A stretch of 32,005 nucleotides of DNA. Source: a virus. Lineage: Duplodnaviria; Caudoviricetes. This document shows positions 1,874-31,274 of this stretch, piece by piece. A program made the position numbers and the translations under genes. The stretch spans positions 1 to 32,005 of the IMG/VR virus record IMGVR_UViG_3300006483_000006; one strand, 5' to 3'. A model generated the notes under the pieces. It was given only the letters and a program-made list of their open reading frames with translations, searched no databases and was not told where the DNA came from. Positions within the stretch are counted from its first letter, which is position 1; each line of letters begins with the position of its first letter.

Positions 1874-3024
1874 TACGCAGCCTCTGCCCAACTCGTGGTG
1901 ATGGTGAGGGACTCAAGCACGGCCAGGCCGTCGGCCGGCACGTCCACGTCGGCGGCCGGGCTGGTCCAGATGATGCGTTTGACGCCTGGGATGGCCATGA
2001 GCAGCGCCACCATGCGGTCGCGGGTCAGATCCTCGCCGATGGCCAGAGGCTCGACGCCCGCCACGGCCGCGGGCAGGAACAGGGCCTGCAATCGAGCCAC
2101 GGCCTGTGCCTGGATGGCTACGGCATCGCCGCTGACCAGCTCCAGTTGCGCGTCGATGGCCACGCCCACCTCGACCGGCCCCTTGACCAACACATCGTCA
2201 TTCTGGGGCTGATCCTCGGCAATGCGCGCGCTGACAGCATCCAACAGATCCTGCGTGGGCAAGCCGGCCGCGCCGGTGATGACCACGTCCACGGTGCCTT
2301 GGCCGCGTGGATGCTGATCAAGCACCGAGGCCGAGGTCACGCCGGGCACCTCCAGCGCCCAGGCCTGGTAGGCGTGCCTGGTCAGGCCGTTGCGGGCGAG
2401 CCAGGCCAGAGCGTAGCGCCCTCGCAGGCTCTCATCATCCTCGCGGTCGGCTCCCTCGCTCACCAGCCAGGCGGCGCGGTTTGTGACAGCGTCCACGCCC
2501 TGCACCGGCGTGACCAGATCGACGATCTGTCCGACCGTGACATTGGCGGCCGCGCCGTACTCCTCGGCTTCCACCGGCACGACTATCTCGGTCTGGCCGG
2601 CAGGAAGCACCGCGTCCTCGGTTGTCACAAAGCGGTAGACCTGGCCGGCGGCGTCGGGCGGCGTGCGCAGGATGCGCCCGGCCGGAATGCGCACGTTGCC
2701 GGAGGTGCCGGCGCGCGTGAAGTAGACAACCCCTCGGGCCTTTGTGGCCGCGCGGCGCGTGATATCGACCTGCTTGCACCACAGATCGAGCCAGGCCCCC
2801 GTCGCCGAAGACGGAAAGGCTTGCGTGAGCACGAAGGCCAGGAACAGGTAGAGCTGATGCAGGCCCCAGCACCATAATTCAACGAGCCCGCGGACAACGC
2901 CCTTGTTGAGGTTCAGGCGTCGCGGAAGCCAACCTTTGGCCACGTACTCAGCCTGGACCTCCTCGATGCGCCCGAACATCTCGGCGCGGATCTGCTCCAA
3001 AGTCTTGTTAACTGGTACGGACAT
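1873..3024 (-). CDS. Baseplate J-like protein (P2 gpJ / Mu gp47)
   Basis: 383 aa; ATGAWLDL, RRAATKARGVVYFTR, GADREDDESLRGR, RGQGTVDVVI motifs. Confidence 0.95.
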   Translation of the reverse strand: MSVPVNKTLEQIRAEMFGRIEEVQAEYVAKGWLPRRLNLNKGVVRGLVELWCWGLHQLYLFLAFVLTQAFPSSATGAWLDLWCKQVDITRRAATKARGVVYFTRAGTSGNVRIPAGRILRTPPDAAGQVYRFVTTEDAVLPAGQTEIVVPVEAEEYGAAANVTVGQIVDLVTPVQGVDAVTNRAAWLVSEGADREDDESLRGRYALAWLARNGLTRHAYQAWALEVPGVTSASVLDQHPRGQGTVDVVITGAAGLPTQDLLDAVSARIAEDQPQNDDVLVKGPVEVGVAIDAQLELVSGDAVAIQAQAVARLQALFLPAAVAGVEPLAIGEDLTRDRMVALLMAIPGVKRIIWTSPAADVDVPADGLAVLESLTITTSWAEAA

Positions 3025-3436
3025 CGCTCTTCAGCGCCTCGATTTTGCCGCCACCGACCTCGATGACCAGGTTGTAGGGGTGATCCTCGCCAACAAACTT
3101 CCAGATCGCCATAAGCGTCACGGAATTGTCATCCCACTTGAGAATTGCCGCCGTGACGCTCATGGGCTGCACGCGCGGGTCGGCCTGGATGCGGCGCCGG
3201 ACTTCGGCCTCCAGGGCCATGCGATTGGCCTGTGTGTCCTCTTCGCGGCTCCACTCGTGGAGCCGCGAGCCGAACGCCGCGTCGTAGAACAGCCCGCCGC
3301 GCGGCGTGCGCAGGCGCAGCAGGATGTCCTGCAGGCCGGTCTGCACGCCGTCGGCAAGCAGCAGCTCACCGGAAGCCGCGATCCGGGGCTTTTGCTCCGC
3401 GTCGAGGGCTATGTCCTGGCCGAAGATGTCGCTCAT
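3008..3436 (-). CDS. Baseplate wedge / sheath initiator (gpW/gp25-like)
   Basis: 142 aa; LQDILLRLRTPRGGLFYDAAFGSRL and DPRV motifs; directly upstream of J. Confidence 0.85.
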   Translation of the reverse strand: MSDIFGQDIALDAEQKPRIAASGELLLADGVQTGLQDILLRLRTPRGGLFYDAAFGSRLHEWSREEDTQANRMALEAEVRRRIQADPRVQPMSVTAAILKWDDNSVTLMAIWKFVGEDHPYNLVIEVGGGKIEALKSDVRTS

Positions 3437-3442
3437 GATCGC

Positions 3443-3640
3443 CTACTTGTGGCTCGGGGCGTTGGGAGCGGTCGGGGTCGCGCCCACGTCCTCGATGTAG
3501 GGCACCTCCTCGCAGACCGCCTCGCAGATGGCCCGGACAAAAACCTGCAACTGATCAGTGAGGTCCGCCCCCCGGAAAAGCGGGCTCGCCTTGATCTTGT
3601 CCAGGGCGTTTTGGCTGACCCGATTAGCATTGACGGCCAT
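3443..3640 (-). CDS. Hypothetical protein, 65 aa (MAVNANRV...)
   Basis: ATG at 3640 just after the spike stop, with GGAG upstream; fills the gap between spike and wedge genes. Confidence 0.65.
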   Translation of the reverse strand: MAVNANRVSQNALDKIKASPLFRGADLTDQLQVFVRAICEAVCEEVPYIEDVGATPTAPNAPSHK

Positions 3641-3645
3641 GTCCC

Positions 3646-4278
3646 TTACTCCTTGCTGGCCAGCACGGTGCTGGATTTGTCGATGTGCGGCATGCCGGTC
3701 AGGGCGCAGATGCACATTCCCGTGACCACGCCCGAGACCGGGCCGGCGGTCTTGTGCGTGACGGTGCCGCCGGCTTCCACGCGCACGTCGCCGTCCACCT
3801 TGACCAGCCAGTCGCCGCCGATGGTCGCCTCGGCGTTGGCTGGGGTGACACAGATGATGCGCTTGCCTGCGTCGATCTTGATGTGCGTGTCCGGGTCGGC
3901 CTGGATGATGAAGCCGTCCAGCTCGCACTGGGGAGCCTGGCCCTCTGGCCAGCGAAAGTTGCTCACGTGCGGGAAGTCAGGCGAGCCATCGTAGTAGGCC
4001 AGGTCGCAGATGACGCCCACGCGCGGCGGGCAGACCACGCCCCGGTCCGGCCCGGCCCACAGGATCGGGATGGACACGCGCGGGACGAGCGGTTCGGCCG
4101 GGTCCTCGCTCTCGTCGTTGCGCAGAGGCTGCACGTCGCAGAAGTATGTGCCGCCCGAAGCATAGGCCTTGACCACGCGGGCCTTGCGCACCACGCGGTA
4201 GTAGCGGCGTAAGTCCGGCATGCACAATTCGATGGCCCGCTTGAGCAGCTCGCGCAGCTGGCGCAGGTCAGATTTCAT
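3646..4278 (-). CDS. Baseplate central spike (gpV / Mu gp45-like), 210 aa
   Basis: Start MKSDLRQ at 4278; OB-fold-like CDVQPL...VSIPILWAGPDRGVVCPPRVG, beta-helix-like repeats, metal-binding C-terminus. Confidence 0.88.
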   Translation of the reverse strand: MKSDLRQLRELLKRAIELCMPDLRRYYRVVRKARVVKAYASGGTYFCDVQPLRNDESEDPAEPLVPRVSIPILWAGPDRGVVCPPRVGVICDLAYYDGSPDFPHVSNFRWPEGQAPQCELDGFIIQADPDTHIKIDAGKRIICVTPANAEATIGGDWLVKVDGDVRVEAGGTVTHKTAGPVSGVVTGMCICALTGMPHIDKSSTVLASKE

Positions 4279-12685: not shown

Positions 12686-12706
12686 GGACTAGTCTTAGAC
12701 TAGTCC
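12686..12706. repeat. Perfect inverted repeat GGACTAGTCT-T-AGACTAGTCC
   Basis: 10-bp arms with a 1-nt spacer; each arm contains the palindrome GACTAGTC; intergenic between capsid and gp36. Confidence 0.9.
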
Positions 12707-12731
12707 GCGGACCAAAGCCCTACGCCAGGAC

Positions 12732-13709
12732 CTAGCTCAGCACCTGGGCCACGCAGATGCCCCGCATATTGGGCACCGGGAACGGCTTGGACTCGCCCAC
12801 CAGCATCCAGCCGCTGGGATCGTCCCGCTTCAGGGGCTTAACGAACATGGGCAGAGGCTGGAGGTTGGCGTCCAAATCGTCCACGGCCGCGTAGATGAGC
12901 CGGTGGTCGGCATCCTTGGCGACCATGCGCACGGTCTTGGCCGGCACCACGGGCGTCATCTGCCTGGTCTCGGGGTCGCGGTACTTCTCGGCCCGGCGCC
13001 GGACGAGGAAACCGCCGACGTTGATGCCCTGGTCCGTGATCTCCACGCGGATCTTGGCCGTGGTCTTGGAGTCCTCGGCCAGCCTGAACAGCTGGTTGTA
13101 CACGTCACCCGAGGCCTGAATCTCGACCTCGCCGCCGTAGCCTTCGGCCTCCAAGGCCTCCTGCATGGCCGTAAGCGTCTCGAAGACGTCGGCCAGCCTG
13201 ACGCCCTCGGCGCCCCACTTCTTGGCCGGGGTGACGCTGAGCGCATCCCCGAAGTCGATAACCCAGCGCTCGAAACCTCCAGCCTCCATCTGCACGGGCC
13301 AGTCGATCTCGCCGCCAAGCGCCTGGGAGCACAGGGCCTCGGTAGTCTTGCGCACGCCCCGGCGCAGCAGGTCGGCCTTGCCCTGCGCCCAGGTCTCCTT
13401 GGCGTTCTGGCCCAGGAGCTTGAGGTTGTTGAGGTCCATCCCGGCCACGAACGTATTGGGCTTGACCGGCAACGGCTCGTAAAAGTCGGCCTGGCCGGAA
13501 TCCCTGGTGGCCGGGATGGAGGCCGAGCCGCGCTTGACCACGGGCAGGGCGTGCACCACACCCTTGATCTCGTGGACGCCCACGATGGGCATGGCCAGCT
13601 GGGGCCGATTCAGAAACAGGCTGTCCATGATGGGCGTCTTGATCACGGGCAGGGCCAACAGGTAGCGCACTATGGCGTCGCGGCTGAACAGTCCGCGGAT
13701 GTCGAGCAT
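12732..13709 (-). CDS. Major capsid protein (Phage_cap_E-like)
   Basis: 325 aa; PVVKRGS, RKTTEALCSQAL.G, IDFG, DDPSG...LVGESKPFPVP. Confidence 0.93.
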   Translation of the reverse strand: MLDIRGLFSRDAIVRYLLALPVIKTPIMDSLFLNRPQLAMPIVGVHEIKGVVHALPVVKRGSASIPATRDSGQADFYEPLPVKPNTFVAGMDLNNLKLLGQNAKETWAQGKADLLRRGVRKTTEALCSQALGGEIDWPVQMEAGGFERWVIDFGDALSVTPAKKWGAEGVRLADVFETLTAMQEALEAEGYGGEVEIQASGDVYNQLFRLAEDSKTTAKIRVEITDQGINVGGFLVRRRAEKYRDPETRQMTPVVPAKTVRMVAKDADHRLIYAAVDDLDANLQPLPMFVKPLKRDDPSGWMLVGESKPFPVPNMRGICVAQVLS

Positions 13710-21936: not shown

Positions 21937-21969
21937 AAAAAAAGAGAAGCGGCCCATGTGAGCCGCTTC
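21937..21969 (-). terminator. Rho-independent terminator closing the early/middle transcript
   Basis: GAAGCGGCTC-ACA-TGGGCCGCTTC hairpin followed by TCTTTTTTT. Confidence 0.85.
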
Positions 21970-21995
21970 GGATGGAGGGGGTATGGCGGGATGTT

Positions 21996-22875: not shown

Positions 22876-23100
22876 CTACTGCTCGTGTGCGGAAATATCG
22901 CGCACCAGGCGCGCGACCTCGTCCCTGGTCAGGTGCACAACGTCACCCGAACCAAAGACCATCTGGACAAATGGTTCGGGGCGGACCGGTCCGGCGACGG
23001 CAGCGGCCTTGGTCGCTTTGGCCCGCTTGCGACGCTCCTGCCAGGGAGCCCCTACCCAAATCCAAAAGATGACTATTCCGAGCCCCAATCCTTCGAGCAT
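22876..23100 (-). CDS. Small single-TM hypothetical protein, 74 aa (MLEGLGLG...)
   Basis: Hydrophobic N-terminus followed by a basic stretch; fills the gap. Confidence 0.55.
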   Translation of the reverse strand: MLEGLGLGIVIFWIWVGAPWQERRKRAKATKAAAVAGPVRPEPFVQMVFGSGDVVHLTRDEVARLVRDISAHEQ

Positions 23101-23114
23101 GTTTGTCACCCAAA

Positions 23115-23432
23115 TTAAGAATTTAACGTCATGACCGCCCGCGCCTGGGCGCGCAGGGTCTGCTGGCACTCTGTGCATGGCCGGGGGCCTGGCCGGCGGC
23201 AGCGGCTGCAGGCCACAGTCTCCAGGGCCGTGTAGATCCGCGCCTCGGGGTCATCGGTGGAGACCAGCGAGGCCCGGATGCGCGCCACCTGGCGCTCGGT
23301 GTCGCCGCCGTATCGCTGGCCGAGCACGGCGTAGACCATGCTCTTGGGCAGCCGGCTGCACCGCACGAAGCGGTAGACCGTGCCGTATAGCTGCTCGATC
23401 TCGGCCCGCAGTTGCGCCAGGTCGATCGACAT
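23115..23432 (-). CDS. Putative HTH DNA-binding protein with C-terminal CxxC...C cluster
   Basis: 105 aa; GTVYRFVRCSRLPKSMVYAVLGQRY; CSRC...CTEC. Confidence 0.7.
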   Translation of the reverse strand: MSIDLAQLRAEIEQLYGTVYRFVRCSRLPKSMVYAVLGQRYGGDTERQVARIRASLVSTDDPEARIYTALETVACSRCRRPGPRPCTECQQTLRAQARAVMTLNS

Positions 23433-23433
23433 C

Positions 23434-24510
23434 TCACGCGCCCACCGCCTGCTGCTGATTCAGAAACCGCTGGGCGAACTGATTCAACCTTGGGGCTGAA
23501 ACGGTCTGTTTGCCGGCTTTGGCCAGGTCAAAGTGATTCAGGAGCAGGGACACGTCGCGGGGATTGACTCCCTCGCGCCTGCTCCACTCGCGCTGGCTCA
23601 GGCCAGAGACTTGGATGCACGCGGCCACTCGCTTCTGCAGCCGCTTGATCAAAAATTCCGTGGGCTGAATCACTGTTTCCGAGGCCTGGTTCATTTCAGG
23701 CGCGGCGGGTGTTTCAGATGATTCAGCCGGATCCGTTTCAGCAGGCGCGGGTGATTCAGGCGATTCAACCTCGGCTGAAACAGGCGTTTCAAGCGCCTCC
23801 GCCTGGGCCGAGGGCGCCTCGGGCTCGGAAACGACCTCGGGGCTGACAACCGGGGTCAGGGCCTCCAACTCGCCGCAGGCAACCCGAGCCCTCGGGGCTG
23901 GCTCGCCCGTCTCGGCGCTCTGACGCCAGCGCCGGCCGCACATGGCCGCCATGCTCGCCGCACCGGTCTGCAGGAGCAGCAGGGCCAGGGCCTGCAGGCC
24001 GCAGGCGGCCCAGGTCTGCCAGGGCAGGCCGGCGGCCGTGGCGTTGGCCAGGCTGGCGCGCTGTGCCTCCAGCTCCGCGATGGCCAGGCGAGCGTCATCG
24101 ATACGGCCGTGCCAGCCGTAGCGGCCCGAGGCCGTGATCTCCAGGTAGCGGGCCAGTTCCGCGCGTCGGGCCTCCATGGCCGCATCCAGGCGGGCCAGTT
24201 CGGCTGGCCGGGCGTCGGCGGCCGTGCGCGCCTCGATGAGCGGCCGGCTGACCATGTACAGCGGCCCGGCCAGCAGCACGGCCGTGGCCACGACTCCGAG
24301 CAGACCGCACCCGAGCCTGGCCGCCCAGCCGCGCGCGGCAAAGGCCCAGGCTAGCCACACGGCAGCCAGCACGCCCAGGGCCACGGACAGGGCCGGGCCG
24401 GCCTGGGCGTGGAAATGGGCGCGCCAAAACGCCCAGCCGTGGATCTGGACCAGGGCCTCGCAGCCGATAAGGATCAGGCCGGGGATGATCAGGCTCGGGA
24501 TGCGTCGCAT
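23434..24510 (-). CDS. Multi-TM membrane protein with coiled coil, P/E/S/A-rich linker and C-terminal XRE-like HTH
   Basis: 358 aa; about 4 hydrophobic segments; LSQREWSRREGVNPRDVSLLLN; AAGGAG RBS. Confidence 0.8.
   Translation of the reverse strand: MRRIPSLIIPGLILIGCEALVQIHGWAFWRAHFHAQAGPALSVALGVLAAVWLAWAFAARGWAARLGCGLLGVVATAVLLAGPLYMVSRPLIEARTAADARPAELARLDAAMEARRAELARYLEITASGRYGWHGRIDDARLAIAELEAQRASLANATAAGLPWQTWAACGLQALALLLLQTGAASMAAMCGRRWRQSAETGEPAPRARVACGELEALTPVVSPEVVSEPEAPSAQAEALETPVSAEVESPESPAPAETDPAESSETPAAPEMNQASETVIQPTEFLIKRLQKRVAACIQVSGLSQREWSRREGVNPRDVSLLLNHFDLAKAGKQTVSAPRLNQFAQRFLNQQQAVGA
23456..23792. repeat. Cluster of 12 YGWTTCAR octamers in both orientations
   Basis: GWTTCA cores start at 23457, 23481, 23535, 23711, 23720, 23735, 23753, 23762, 23786 (+); TGAAWC cores at 23497, 23666, 23776 (-). 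Confidence 0.88.
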
Positions 24511-24522
24511 GATAGGGCTCCT

Positions 24523-24636
24523 TTATCGCGCAAAAATCAGGGCCAGCAGAAAGGCCAGGAACGGATGGTCGGACAAGGCCAGAAGAAAGCAGAAAAACAG
24601 GACCAGGCCGTTCCACATGGATATTTCGAGGGACAT
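24523..24636 (-). CDS. 37-aa hydrophobic membrane peptide MSLEISMWNGLVLFFCFLLALSDHPFLAFLLALIFAR
   Basis: ATG overlaps the gemA stop (TGATG); its TAA runs into the AAGGAG RBS of the next gene; absent from the ORF track. Confidence 0.7.
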   Translation of the reverse strand: MSLEISMWNGLVLFFCFLLALSDHPFLAFLLALIFAR

Positions 24637-25115
24637 CAAATCACCTCGGCATTGTCCGGGTCGATGCCGCGCTTGTTGCAGCGGTTGTGCAGGTCCTTGC
24701 TCAGGGTCTGGAGATGCGATTGGTCCTTGAGCCAGGCAAACTGGGCCACGCCGAACTGGCGCTGGCAGCGCTCATTCAGATAATCCAGGCTCCAGCCCAG
24801 CGCCCGAACCTGGGCCAGGATGCGCCGCTTCTGCCGGGCGTTGGGGTCGCTGTCCGGGATCGTCACGAAGATCCGCGCCTGGTCGGCCGCCTTGGCCGTC
24901 TTCTTGAGCCCGGCGGGTTGCGCCGGGCCGGCCCAGCCCCTGGCCACGAAATGGTTGAGCAGTTGCGAGAGCTGCGGGACGGTCAAGCCCCTGGAGGACT
25001 CGACGCCGTACAGCTCGGCCAGCATGGCGCGGTATTCGGGGTCGGACAGGCCCAGGCCTTTTTTGGCGATGTGGATCTTGGCCAGCAGGCCCTTGCGGGC
25101 GGTGTGCTTGCTCAT
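24636..25115 (-). CDS. gemA: GemA / Mu gp16 (DUF1018) family protein, 159 aa
   Basis: LAKIHIAKKGLGLSDPEYRAML...GVESS..LT..QL. Confidence 0.9.
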   Translation of the reverse strand: MSKHTARKGLLAKIHIAKKGLGLSDPEYRAMLAELYGVESSRGLTVPQLSQLLNHFVARGWAGPAQPAGLKKTAKAADQARIFVTIPDSDPNARQKRRILAQVRALGWSLDYLNERCQRQFGVAQFAWLKDQSHLQTLSKDLHNRCNKRGIDPDNAEVI

Positions 25116-27829: not shown

Positions 27830-28434
27830 GACTTCCTCCTGTTTCTGCGGATGGTTTCGCGGATGACCGGCCGTTGGGGGCCGGGATCGTTCGTGAGTTC
27901 GTAGATAGTGAGGACGCCGTCCTGTCCCGCCTCGGCCACATAGCCGGCCAGGCAGAGGAGCCTGACGTAATCCGCCACCGCGCCCTTGGCGCAGCCCGTG
28001 GCCTCGATCAGGGCGCGGCGGGTAAAACGGCGCATGTCGCGGACGGCCAGCCATATGCGGTCGCGGGCCGTGCCGGACTCGATGTCGCGCAGGCTGCCGG
28101 GCTGGACCAGGGCCTTCTGCACGCGCTGCCACGCGCCGGGCGTGGACTCGCGCAGCAACCGCACGTCGTGCGAGGACGTGTCCAGGACCAGGTCCAGCGT
28201 CATGCGCTCCTGACCGTCCGGGCTCGGCGCGGCCAGGGCCTGGCGGGCGGCCTGGGTGGCGCGATAGCAGCCTTGGCCGTGCGGGCGGATGTAGCCGGCG
28301 GAGGCGAGCCAGGCGCAGTAGGCCTGGGCCTCGTCCAGCGCTACGCCGGCAATGCGCGCGAGGTCATTCGCGTCCCAGCCCGGATTGGCCGTGCCGATGG
28401 CCCGCCACATGCGTTCGCGTTCGGCCGTCTGCAT
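27826..28434 (-). CDS. Tandem winged-helix protein, 202 aa
   Basis: Two similar units, R.RMWRAI...AYCAWLASAGYI and RDRIWLAV...DYVRLLCLAGYV; coupled to the B gene. Confidence 0.8.
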   Translation of the reverse strand: MQTAERERMWRAIGTANPGWDANDLARIAGVALDEAQAYCAWLASAGYIRPHGQGCYRATQAARQALAAPSPDGQERMTLDLVLDTSSHDVRLLRESTPGAWQRVQKALVQPGSLRDIESGTARDRIWLAVRDMRRFTRRALIEATGCAKGAVADYVRLLCLAGYVAEAGQDGVLTIYELTNDPGPQRPVIRETIRRNRRKS

Positions 28435-29138
28435 CAGCTCCTCCAGGTGGCGACCTGGCGGGCCACGTCGCCGGCCAGCTTGGCGTCGATGACCTTGGTG
28501 TCGCGGGCCTTGGCGGCCTTCTCCAAGTGGCCGAGCAGCGTCCAGACCAGCCGGAAGTCGCCGTCGGCGCGGCGCACGATGAGCGCGCCGGCCTCGGGCG
28601 CGACCTCCAGGCCGGCGGCCTCTTCGGCCAGGATGGCCACGTCCTCTTCGCTGACCGGCCCGAATTCGATGACCTGCTTGACACGGCTCCAGATGCGGCG
28701 ACGCTCGCCAAGCAGGCCCTTCATCTCCAGCTCGCCGATGAGCACCACGGGCGCGCCGGTCATGTCGTGGATATCGCGCAAGTCGTCGATGCGCTCCACG
28801 TGCAGGCGGTCGGCCTCGTCCACGAAGATCGTGCGCGGGGCCGCGTCCAGGGATTCGATTACGCGCCGCTTGCAGACCGCGAAGTTGGCCGGGCTCTCGC
28901 CGCTGGTGAGCAGGCACAGGGCCTGGACAAAGGCGGTCTTGGTCCAGCCGCCCATGACGCGCAGGTAGATCCCGCCGTTCTGGGCGTAGTAGTTGCGGGC
29001 CGTCTCGGTCTTGCCCCGGCCGGCCTGGCCGTAGACCAGGGCGAAGCCGGTCTCGCCCTCCACGGTGTCCTCCAGCGTGCGGATTTTGCGGCGGAACTCC
29101 GTGACGTTGCCGGTTTCAATGAATACATCCTTACGCAT
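28434..29138 (-). CDS. Transposition AAA+ ATPase (MuB-like)
   Basis: Walker A GQAGRGKT, Walker B IFVDEAD, LRDIHD...PVVLIG, RIWSRV. Confidence 0.95.
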   Translation of the reverse strand: MRKDVFIETGNVTEFRRKIRTLEDTVEGETGFALVYGQAGRGKTETARNYYAQNGGIYLRVMGGWTKTAFVQALCLLTSGESPANFAVCKRRVIESLDAAPRTIFVDEADRLHVERIDDLRDIHDMTGAPVVLIGELEMKGLLGERRRIWSRVKQVIEFGPVSEEDVAILAEEAAGLEVAPEAGALIVRRADGDFRLVWTLLGHLEKAAKARDTKVIDAKLAGDVARQVATWRS

Positions 29139-29147
29139 GGCGTCTCC

Positions 29148-31274
29148 TTATGCTTTGGCCCGTCGCCGGGCGTACAACCGTGCGAGGCCCTCGAAGCGGG
29201 CCTGGGCCACCTCGCGGTACTCCTGGCCCGCCTCGTAGGCGGCCATGAATTCCCGGTCCGGCTCGCGCAACGTCAGGCCGTCGCGGTAGGCCAGGCCGAA
29301 CAGGTATTCGTACTTGTCGAGTTCGCTGATGATGTGCGGCAGCTCGGCCGACGGCGTGTAGTCGCGCGCGGCCGTGACGCGCTCCTCGCGGGCCTTGCGC
29401 ACGGCGCTTTCGATGCGCCGGACCTTGGATGGCGGCAGGTTCGGGGCGGCGGCGCCAGCCTCGACCGCGGCAGTCTCGCGCGTGGCCTCGGACAGCTCGG
29501 TCATGCGCCTGCGCTGGTCGGCCAGGGCGGCGTCCAGCACGCCGCGCGCAATGGACGAGGCCTCGTGCTCCTGGGCCTTCTTGAGGTCGATGGCCTGCTG
29601 CAACGCGCGCCGATCCTGCTCGTCGCCCAGGATGGATGCCGCCGGATGGATGCCGGCCACGCGCGTGGCCTCGCACAGGAGCGTCTTGCCCGTGGCGTCG
29701 TAGACCAGCACGCTGGAAGAGTCTTGCAGGTCGTAGCGCACGAGCGCGGAGTGCGTGCGTGAGTACAGCTCGGGCGCATAGTAGCGGCGACCGAACATCT
29801 TGATGCCATCGCGGGTGATCTTGGTGACACGCTGGCCCAGCATGAGGTGGCGCAGCTGGCGCTCGTCCACGCCGGGGCCGCGCCCGGCCAGGAAGACCTC
29901 GGCCGGGCATTTGCCGGACAGGTGGCCGCGCTGGGGACGGTTGATGTACTCGTCTATCCAGCGGGCCACGGCCACGTGGGCCTCCTCCAGGGTCAGGGCG
30001 CGGCCGCCGGCCGCCTCCCAGGCCTTGCGGTGCAGGGGCTCGCCCCGGCGCAGGCGCGGAGGCTTGGAGTCGATGTCCCGGCCCACGTAGGACGGCGACC
30101 ACTGCTCCAGATCGTGCAACGTGCCGAAAAAGCGTTCAATGGTCTTGGATTGGCCGTGGTAGGGCCAGGCAAAAATGGTGTGGATGCCAAGCTCGCCGAA
30201 CAGGCCGGACATGCCGGTCTGGCGGAAGTCCACGCCGTGGAAATACTTGGCCCGGAAGGCCTTGCCGTTGTCCAGGTAGGCGATGCGCGGGAACTTGCCC
30301 AGGGTGATGCAGGCCCGGCGGAAGGCCGCCGCGATTGCCTGCACGTTTTCCGTGGGCAGGATTTCCCAGCCCAGCGGGCAGTTGGAGGCCATGTCGTACC
30401 AGGTCACGAGCTCCATGCGCTGAGGCTTGCCGGTCCAGGGGTTGATGATCTCAAAATTAAGCACGTGGCCGTCGGCCACGAGGATGTCGCCGACCTGGAT
30501 GCGCGAGTAGTCACGGTCGATGTAGAAAGCGGCCAGATCGTTCCAGGCTTTTTTGCCCTGGCGCGTGTAGACCCAGGTGCCGAAATTTGTGGAGCGCCAC
30601 TGGTCCAGGAAGCGGCGCATGGTGGCCTCGCTGGGCGGGATCAGGCCGCTGGCCTGCATGGTCGGCTCGGCCATGCGCACGGCCGAGGACACGGTGGGCG
30701 CGTTGGGCAGCAGCACGGCCCGCAGGAGGATCTCCACGTGCGCCTCGGTCATGACCTTGCGCTCGACGTTGTGCTCGCCACGGCGGTCCACCAGGCTGAC
30801 CACGCTGCCCCGGCGGCGCAGACTGACCTTCCAGCGTTCGATGGACTGCCAGCTCGCGTTCGGCCCGAGGATCTCCAGCAGCCTGGGCCAGGCCCCGCCC
30901 CGGTAGGCCAGGACAAAATTCTCCCGCGCCGCGGCCTTGGTGCCGGTCTTGGCCTTACGCATCCACTCCACGTACAGGCTCACTAGGTCGGCCTTGGCCA
31001 GGGCCTTACCCTTCTTGGCCTCGGCCACCGGCGCCGTGGCCAGGGTCGGCTGATCCGGCGCGGGCAGGGCCTGGGCCTGGGCGGCTTCCTCCTCGTGGCG
31101 CAGGAGCTTGATGCGCAGGGCCTCGGGCATGGAGGACACAAGCCATTCGTGGCCGCCGCCGCGCCCCTTGCGCGGGCGGGATTGCCAGGATTCGGATTTG
31201 GCCTGGGCGTGTATCCGCTGTACTGACACACTCATGATCGCGGCCAACTCCCGTGTCGTGTATGATTCCTGCAT
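29148..31274 (-). CDS. Mu-type DDE transposase (MuA-like)
   Basis: 708 aa; N-terminal Mu HTH (YTTRELA...RKGRGGG.EW); catalytic VADGH, YLDNGKAF, KTIERFF; C-terminal VRYD...V.VYD. Confidence 0.97.
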   Translation of the reverse strand: MQESYTTRELAAIMSVSVQRIHAQAKSESWQSRPRKGRGGGHEWLVSSMPEALRIKLLRHEEEAAQAQALPAPDQPTLATAPVAEAKKGKALAKADLVSLYVEWMRKAKTGTKAAARENFVLAYRGGAWPRLLEILGPNASWQSIERWKVSLRRRGSVVSLVDRRGEHNVERKVMTEAHVEILLRAVLLPNAPTVSSAVRMAEPTMQASGLIPPSEATMRRFLDQWRSTNFGTWVYTRQGKKAWNDLAAFYIDRDYSRIQVGDILVADGHVLNFEIINPWTGKPQRMELVTWYDMASNCPLGWEILPTENVQAIAAAFRRACITLGKFPRIAYLDNGKAFRAKYFHGVDFRQTGMSGLFGELGIHTIFAWPYHGQSKTIERFFGTLHDLEQWSPSYVGRDIDSKPPRLRRGEPLHRKAWEAAGGRALTLEEAHVAVARWIDEYINRPQRGHLSGKCPAEVFLAGRGPGVDERQLRHLMLGQRVTKITRDGIKMFGRRYYAPELYSRTHSALVRYDLQDSSSVLVYDATGKTLLCEATRVAGIHPAASILGDEQDRRALQQAIDLKKAQEHEASSIARGVLDAALADQRRRMTELSEATRETAAVEAGAAAPNLPPSKVRRIESAVRKAREERVTAARDYTPSAELPHIISELDKYEYLFGLAYRDGLTLREPDREFMAAYEAGQEYREVAQARFEGLARLYARRRAKA

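Follow-up and report, generated by a model that had tools for sequence, protein, structure and literature searches.

Why would a phage gene that encodes a predicted membrane protein be crowded with copies of one short DNA motif, in both orientations and inside its own coding sequence? The question is raised by a locus within a 32,005-nt stretch of DNA (hereafter the window, meaning the whole stretch analyzed), whose source record is a linear virus contig that is 68% complete. The feature is real and belongs to an unnamed protein family, and there is good comparative support for a candidate pairing of a helix-turn-helix (HTH) domain with sites inside its own gene. We consider it probable that the HTH domain binds the array, and somewhat better than an even bet that the protein keeps the DNA of the element at the inner membrane in the early, replicative phase; tethering as the purpose is less sure than binding, and the purpose at the level of the element is the least certain step. 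A sequence-only reading of the locus had proposed much of this: its array, the 3' clusters expected in relatives and the trend with the recognition helix held up, while its Mu-like module and its inclusion of neighboring genes did not.

Phage setting

The window's phage is Mu-like, with MuA, MuB, GemA, endolysin, holin and Mu portal genes present. On the early strand, the membrane-HTH gene is flanked by GemA and by an HTH_17 gene, past which comes a terminator-like hairpin (Table 1). Among named homologues, those of Desulfocurvibacter africanus are the nearest, so the host of the phage presumably belongs to the Desulfovibrionales.

Table 1. Window coordinates of the membrane-HTH gene, its parts and nearby features.
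Feature	Position	Strand or placement	Basis or remark
Membrane-HTH gene, 358 aa, unnamed family	23434..24510	-	ORF; 320 related clusters
Three predicted membrane helices, aa 4-84	24259..24501	-	Hydropathy, family charge pattern, AlphaFold helices
Coiled helical hairpin, aa 88-160, conserved R-x-G-W at tip	24031..24249	-	Putatively periplasmic, from charge distribution
Fourth predicted membrane helix, ~aa 166-192, then basic residues	23935..24015	-	Hydropathy
Disordered linker, aa 202-284	23659..23907	-	AlphaFold model; second half holds 8 motif copies
XRE/Cro-type HTH domain, aa 285-357	23440..23658	-	Presumed recognition helix NPRDVSLL; 4 motif copies
Array of 12 YGWTTCAR (= YTGAAWCR) sites	23456..23792	both orientations	Spacings 9-131 bp
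Inverted pair [TG]GAAAC-N3-GATTCA	23666..23680	just before HTH	Kept in L001, L002, L003
Two overlapping inverted pairs, TGAAAC-N4-GTTTCA and GTTTCA-N8-TGAATC	23762..23791	window gene	
GemA homologue	24636..25115	-	PF06252, E 1.4e-18
Mu-type transposase and transposition ATPase	28434..31274	-	Upstream of membrane-HTH gene, same strand
Terminator-like hairpin closing the early operon with the membrane-HTH gene	21946..21969	-	Consensus match only

An array written in codon choice

YGWTTCAR matches 15 times in the window, against a mean of 4.0 and at most 8 in dinucleotide shuffles of the whole window (n = 100). Twelve of the matches form the array, 9 on the plus strand and 3 on the minus strand, exactly as the sequence-only reading had counted. 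That reading knew of one copy elsewhere; there are three, all isolated (13606, 19165 and 21992), and the one at 21992 shares bases with the TGA stop codon of the early operon's final gene. When all 5- to 7-mers were scanned without preselection in 400-bp windows, TGAATCA at 23401-23800 ranked first in the contig, with 6 of its 6 copies there, so the post hoc choice of motif does not lie behind the cluster. Spacing within the YGWTTCAR array is irregular, with no fixed periodicity.

The copies occupy four registers, which bears out the claim of differing codon phases, but half of them (6/12) share a single register encoding E-S/T. When codons were redrawn with the protein fixed, using the codon usage of 14 phage genes, the mean was 0.63 copies and the maximum 4, and none of 5000 redraws reached the observed 12. 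The same held for each part alone: 8 copies were observed in the linker versus 0.09 expected, and 4 in the HTH-coding part versus 0.54 (0/5000 in both cases). Codon usage is shifted in the same regions. GC3 is 0.48 in the second half of the linker versus 0.86 in other phage genes, glutamate codons there are GAA in 8 of 10 cases (17% in other genes), and all four asparagine codons of the HTH-coding part are AAT (27% in other genes). From the redraws and the codon bias together it follows that the array is a DNA-level feature arising from codon choice, and amino acid repeats do not explain it, as had been argued from the letters alone.

The N8 geometry of one inverted pair in the window array occurs twice in a distant homologue (L052). 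The tail of that family gene (gene nt 556-608) also holds two 20-bp sites, each quasi-palindromic and each the perfect reverse complement of the other.

A membrane module with a C-terminal HTH domain

Hydrophobic segments of the window protein span residues 4-22, 40-58, 66-84 and 174-192, and the AlphaFold model (117 sequences, mean pLDDT 84) places helices at 5-32, 37-58, 62-127, 134-155 and 163-201, followed by a disordered stretch (202-284) and a helical bundle (285-357). Hydropathy, AlphaFold and a profile match agree with the architecture first read from the sequence, namely about four predicted transmembrane helices, a coiled coil, a flexible linker and a C-terminal XRE-like HTH. Basic residues occur at the N-terminus and after the fourth hydrophobic segment, and the topology is probably N-in, with the hairpin periplasmic and the HTH domain cytoplasmic.

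A profile built from 22 HTH domains matched the XRE structure 2o38 (E 1.4e-7), the immunity repressor 8bny (1.4e-5) and HigA, and TIGR04111 was matched by 12 of 117 family members (best 1.4e-7). A fold search with the isolated HTH (pLDDT 88) placed DBP48, HigA, SinR and XRE at the top, at probabilities of at most 0.94 and E above 0.1. The window protein matched nothing in Pfam (E<=0.01), PHROGs, PADLOC or NCBIfam, nor in annotated phage and plasmid records; solved structures held no relative of the membrane module, and whole-model fold searches returned generic helical hairpins only. Its nearest clusters in the ESM Atlas are unnamed and mostly viral (best score 0.90).

A family of mobile elements

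By profile search, the family comprises 320 clusters at 50% identity; matches from one genome (G146) were excluded from every claim. Among 204 family proteins, 113 match the HTH profile and 91 do not, some of the latter through divergence or truncation. Most HTH-less members are short forms that end soon past the fourth helix with the membrane module kept, and the number of such relatives suggests that this module has a role independent of DNA binding. A search around 13 short-form loci for a split form, in which the family HTH would be encoded separately, found none, the best match having E 0.018 and lying far from the gene. Across 117 members, 21 Pfam families were matched, and DUF2637, which we take to be the SpdB2-like domain, was not among them.

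The surroundings of HTH-bearing members (103 ORFs scanned) include primases, recombination proteins, methylases and an O-like initiator. The sequence-only reading had placed the protein in a Mu-like module, which does not fit the wider family: members in non-Mu elements also adjoin genes for primase, recombination and conjugation. These neighborhoods, together with the conjugation genes of genome G305 described below, point to a family of mobile elements in general, and judging from them the family is not Mu-specific.

Two members differ by eye at the C-terminus. In P0060, the family membrane module is fused to a GemA-like domain in place of the XRE HTH, and at L027:5968-6849 it is joined to a different, winged-helix-like domain, with ParB-like and methylase genes nearby.

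Arrays in relatives

Intragenic clusters are not peculiar to the window. Two near-complete proviruses with 46-47% protein identity carry clusters of a related motif in the same gene. In a blind test that included the window, the best k-mer cluster of the gene tail exceeded all control windows of the same locus in 7 of the 18 loci that have a C-terminal domain and in 1 of 12 short-form loci (p=0.036 for the difference; L017 was dropped as too short, L020 was dropped among the short forms, and L027 has the different domain noted above). When length was matched at 105 bp, the comparison of 21 versus 12 loci gave p=0.02. HTH-less relatives are mostly without clusters. Two HTH-less short forms (L007:4868-5590 and L010:9968-10711) have in their tails an inverted pair of a longer element of the GGGTT(T)TAA(A)CCC type, and L007 gave the strongest short-form signal in the length-matched test.

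When eight motifs were tested on 24 HTH-bearing loci, from which the motifs themselves had been picked after inspection, 10 loci reached p<1e-4 and 4 more p<0.01, and the other 10 had none of the eight at p<0.01. Codon resampling of 13 loci, selected because each showed a motif, reproduced the observed count in 0/2000 trials in ten of them and in 1, 3 and 49/2000 in the other three. Arrays are therefore common in the family but not universal, and the fear that homologues might be devoid of intragenic clusters was unfounded, since many have 3' clusters of their own.

At L139:3022-4083 (genome G653) and L140 (G550), a TGCGC array spans the entire family gene, membrane part included, and 49 of the 72 TGCGC copies in the L139 contig fall in 3000-4000. 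Genes around these two loci include, by eye, an integrase-like gene, an SSB and a lipoprotein; those that were scanned had no Pfam match at 1e-5.

Recognition helix and motif

The motif differs between lineages and, from the comparisons below, tends to follow the presumed recognition helix, with kinship only partly separated. The window and L052, which are 24% identical, share both the helix NPRDVS and TGAAWC, and the L052 membrane domain groups with RPADVS members; placement in the window's clade was rejected (p-AU 0.002, for a group named after a tree had been seen). Two loci with the helix RPAD[VI]S (L069 and L056) have CGTAAC arrays, and two with RQNLS (L133 and L137) have TGCGC arrays of 28 and 16 copies. 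Domain exchange is apparent in P0003, whose membrane domain is 99% that of the window and whose HTH is 74% like that of P0006 and 38% like the window's.

Linker composition, scored in proteins without their DNA, points the same way. The dipeptides VT/RN occur at 5.3 per 100 residues in 10 RPA-helix linkers versus 0.8, and AQ/CA/AH/MR at 10.1 versus 0.6 in 7 R-x-N linkers, both of these helix groups being kin groups as well. With kinship removed, the partial correlation between helix and linker dipeptides (109 linkers, one mis-cut linker dropped) was exceeded in 0/500 trials under one normalization and in 127/500, not significant, under the other. The co-variation anticipated by the sequence-only reading is thus visible in three helix-motif pairs but has exceptions: L050 has a helix (RPADLS) resembling the CGTAAC-linked ones but none of the eight motifs at p<0.01, CGTAAC included, and L037 has a CGTAAC array despite an unlike helix.

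A second array in a conjugative element

In the 2.7-Mb genome G305, only two clusters occur among the 55 copies of ATGGAACA, one in the family gene (12 copies) and one in the linker of a relaxase gene (7 copies), 23.5 kb apart in the same ICE region. The relaxase (TraI_2) gene lies at L143:13763-16282 on the plus strand, and its array, at G305:C15:48122-48406, has TGGAAC as in the family gene. Of the 23 GGAAC copies in the relaxase gene, 19 fall within 400 bp, in three registers and on both strands. TraF, TraH, TraG and the TraI_2 relaxase are among the neighbors of the family gene, which is on the opposite strand to traG and ~2 kb past it. Peptide constraints would hardly account for a motif shared by two unrelated genes of the same element, in what is a single case. 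The window, the virus records and G305 all speak against a motif that is equally frequent genome-wide, in counts made on G305 and the virus records.

Proposed mechanism

We propose that a predicted four-pass inner-membrane protein, in the N-in orientation with its hairpin periplasmic and its XRE-type HTH cytoplasmic on a long linker, binds the array in its own gene. Binding would be sequence-specific, with several proteins loading on the array, and mainly in cis, because the protein would be inserted near its own gene. The bound protein would pin the phage DNA to the membrane in the early, replicative phase, and the benefit may lie in positioning element DNA for its replication or packaging, or for its transfer where the element is conjugative. 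This is the function that we infer for the membrane-HTH protein from sequence.

We entertain a broader picture more tentatively, at somewhat less than even chances: widespread self-addressed tethers in temperate phages, ICEs and other elements, in which one integral membrane protein has its own gene as a centromere-like address, the HTH domain and the address are swapped and re-tuned as a cassette, and extra addresses in other genes, such as the relaxase gene, draw selected regions of the element to the membrane.

Membrane placement of phage or conjugative DNA is understood for only a few systems, and the family offers a one-gene candidate. Controls are built in, since HTH-less members and domain swaps occur naturally, as do several helix-motif pairs; NPRDVS/TGAAWC, RPADVS/CGTAAC and RQNLS/TGCGC give direct binding predictions. 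If the proposal is true, the requirement to hold DNA sites would be seen to shape protein linkers, and the family could provide orthogonal anchors between DNA and membrane with which to position bacterial loci.

Alternative explanations

Alternatively, the protein may be a membrane-bound regulator whose HTH domain, seated on the array, acts as a transcription roadblock that limits its own gene and those downstream, which in the window include the final HTH gene ahead of the lysis and head genes. The periplasmic hairpin might sense an envelope signal that brings about release, and membrane attachment of the DNA would be a side effect. XRE domains are usually repressors and membrane-bound regulators of the ToxR/CadC kind exist, both of which count for this explanation. 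The sites lie within a transcribed operon, upstream of the HTH_17 gene and the terminator-like hairpin, and the conserved inverted pairs resemble operators. We nevertheless think it unlikely, as the genes downstream of the family gene vary among elements, the two promoter-like sites found are near 31.5 kb and not at the array, and at least 12 irregular sites with a linker of ~85 residues would seem to exceed the needs of an operator.

A role in exclusion or defense appears less likely still. Here, the membrane module would block or sense incoming DNA, and the HTH domain and array would recognize kin DNA at the membrane or park a toxic membrane protein on the resident genome. Such a role would suit the common HTH-less forms that keep the membrane module, the fast diversification of array and HTH and their swapping as a unit, as in specificity determinants, and the position of the G305 gene relative to traG. 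It is harder to reconcile with a gene that sits in early or replication operons and in no separate lysogenic cassette, and with the PADLOC results, in which the window protein had no match and 117 members gave five single-member matches. A catalogued anti-phage system in the sense of PADLOC was rejected on these results.

It is very improbable that the arrays are by-products, with repeats arising by slippage and expansion in an unconstrained linker, or retained for the sake of mRNA structure, and bound by nothing. Copies in four registers, on both strands and also inside the folded HTH domain argue against this origin, as do flanks that are not repeated and the recurrence of the motif in the unrelated relaxase gene of G305; on the other side, no array was detected in 10 of the 24 HTH-bearing loci and some arrays are tandem peptide repeats, as in L111. 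The array mRNA of the window folds more strongly than shuffles (z -2.9 to -3.3), and that of L052 more strongly again (z -8.9), but 1 of 20 control windows folds as well as the window array, and folding is not kept in the close array-bearing relatives L002 (z -0.1) and L003 (z +1.1), for which reason we rejected conserved RNA structure as the basis of the array.

That another binder occupies the array (the adjacent HTH/Zn protein, MuA/MuB, or a GANTC-reading methylase or restriction enzyme) is barely credible, even with an HTH/Zn gene that begins 2 bases past the stop of the membrane-HTH gene and 8 GANTC sites inside the array, given that none of 5 other records, two near-complete array-bearing proviruses among them, yielded the HTH/Zn gene (in a search without a positive control), that arrays are present in non-Mu neighborhoods, and that GAAAC copies and the motifs of other lineages are not GANTC, which occurs 70 times in the window.

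Comparison with known systems

The membrane-HTH protein shares single traits with several described systems. SpdA2/sps of the Streptomyces plasmid pIJ101 is a mobile-element protein that binds sites in its own gene, and recoding the sites lowered segregational stability (PMC4170104); the window protein likewise has candidate sites within its own coding region. SpdA proteins are 117-163 aa long, with an N-terminal DNA-binding part and 1-3 copies of a conserved 12-bp palindrome, and the word 'transmembrane' does not occur in that paper (PMC4170104), whereas the window protein has 358 aa, a C-terminal HTH, a predicted integral membrane location, 12 short sites and lineage-specific motifs.

RicO/ricS in Staphylococcus aureus (bioRxiv 10.64898/2026.03.06.710092) and RocS (PMC11500499) are precedents for one protein that bridges specific DNA sites and the membrane, and a single-protein tether of the RicO kind is what we propose here from sequence. 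These are chromosomal, with an N-terminal DNA-binding domain, a C-terminal amphipathic helix and nine sites over ~700 kb, as opposed to four hydrophobic segments in the N-terminal half, a C-terminal HTH and sites packed in the gene. In Corynebacterium prophage CGP3, AlpA/alpS-AlpC brings phage DNA to the membrane for efficient replication (PMC4446434). The phage context and the short repeats concentrated at a gene (bound in the case of AlpA) are alike, but that system uses a soluble adaptor and an actin-like filament, and its repeats are in a promoter region (PMC4446434).

The phi29 protein p16.7, an integral membrane protein that has been put forward as an anchor for replicating phage DNA, differs in working via terminal protein and displaced single strands, and the accessible portions of the reports describe no site array (PMC4974454, PMC4446434). 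SpdB2 of plasmid pSVH1, a DNA-binding protein of a kind found on plasmids and some actinophages, has four predicted membrane helices and a coiled coil like the window protein, but its coiled coil is N-terminal, its binding is non-specific, it forms pores, and a site array is not described in the text available (PMC4447253). The window protein had no match in the plasmid collection. We also rejected ParABS and iteron-Rep systems: HTH_ParB was matched by 1 of 117 members, weakly, and the AAA match among 27 window ORFs scanned is MuB. The protein thus shares single traits with RicO, AlpA/alpS and SpdA2/sps but fails their defining architecture, and in the main texts of open-license papers and bioRxiv preprints we found no prior description of the family or of this combination of traits.

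Neighboring genes

The sequence-only reading had counted genes on both sides as part of the system. The 37-aa ORF (window 24523-24639, minus strand) is small, hydrophobic and made of short imperfect repeats. A 60-bp deletion reduces it to 17 aa in the 96%-identical L001, and it was rejected as a partner on that ground, as was the HTH/Zn gene, which was not found in the five other records searched. Neither, on this comparison, is a conserved partner.

The single-TM gene downstream of the membrane-HTH gene (window 22876-23097, minus strand) has a look-alike two genes downstream in L002 (L002:10834-11151), with a C-terminal end that is similar by eye. Elsewhere in the contig, ACTAGTC occurs four times, every copy inside one 400-bp stretch (~12700-13050) near the 3' end of the capsid gene.
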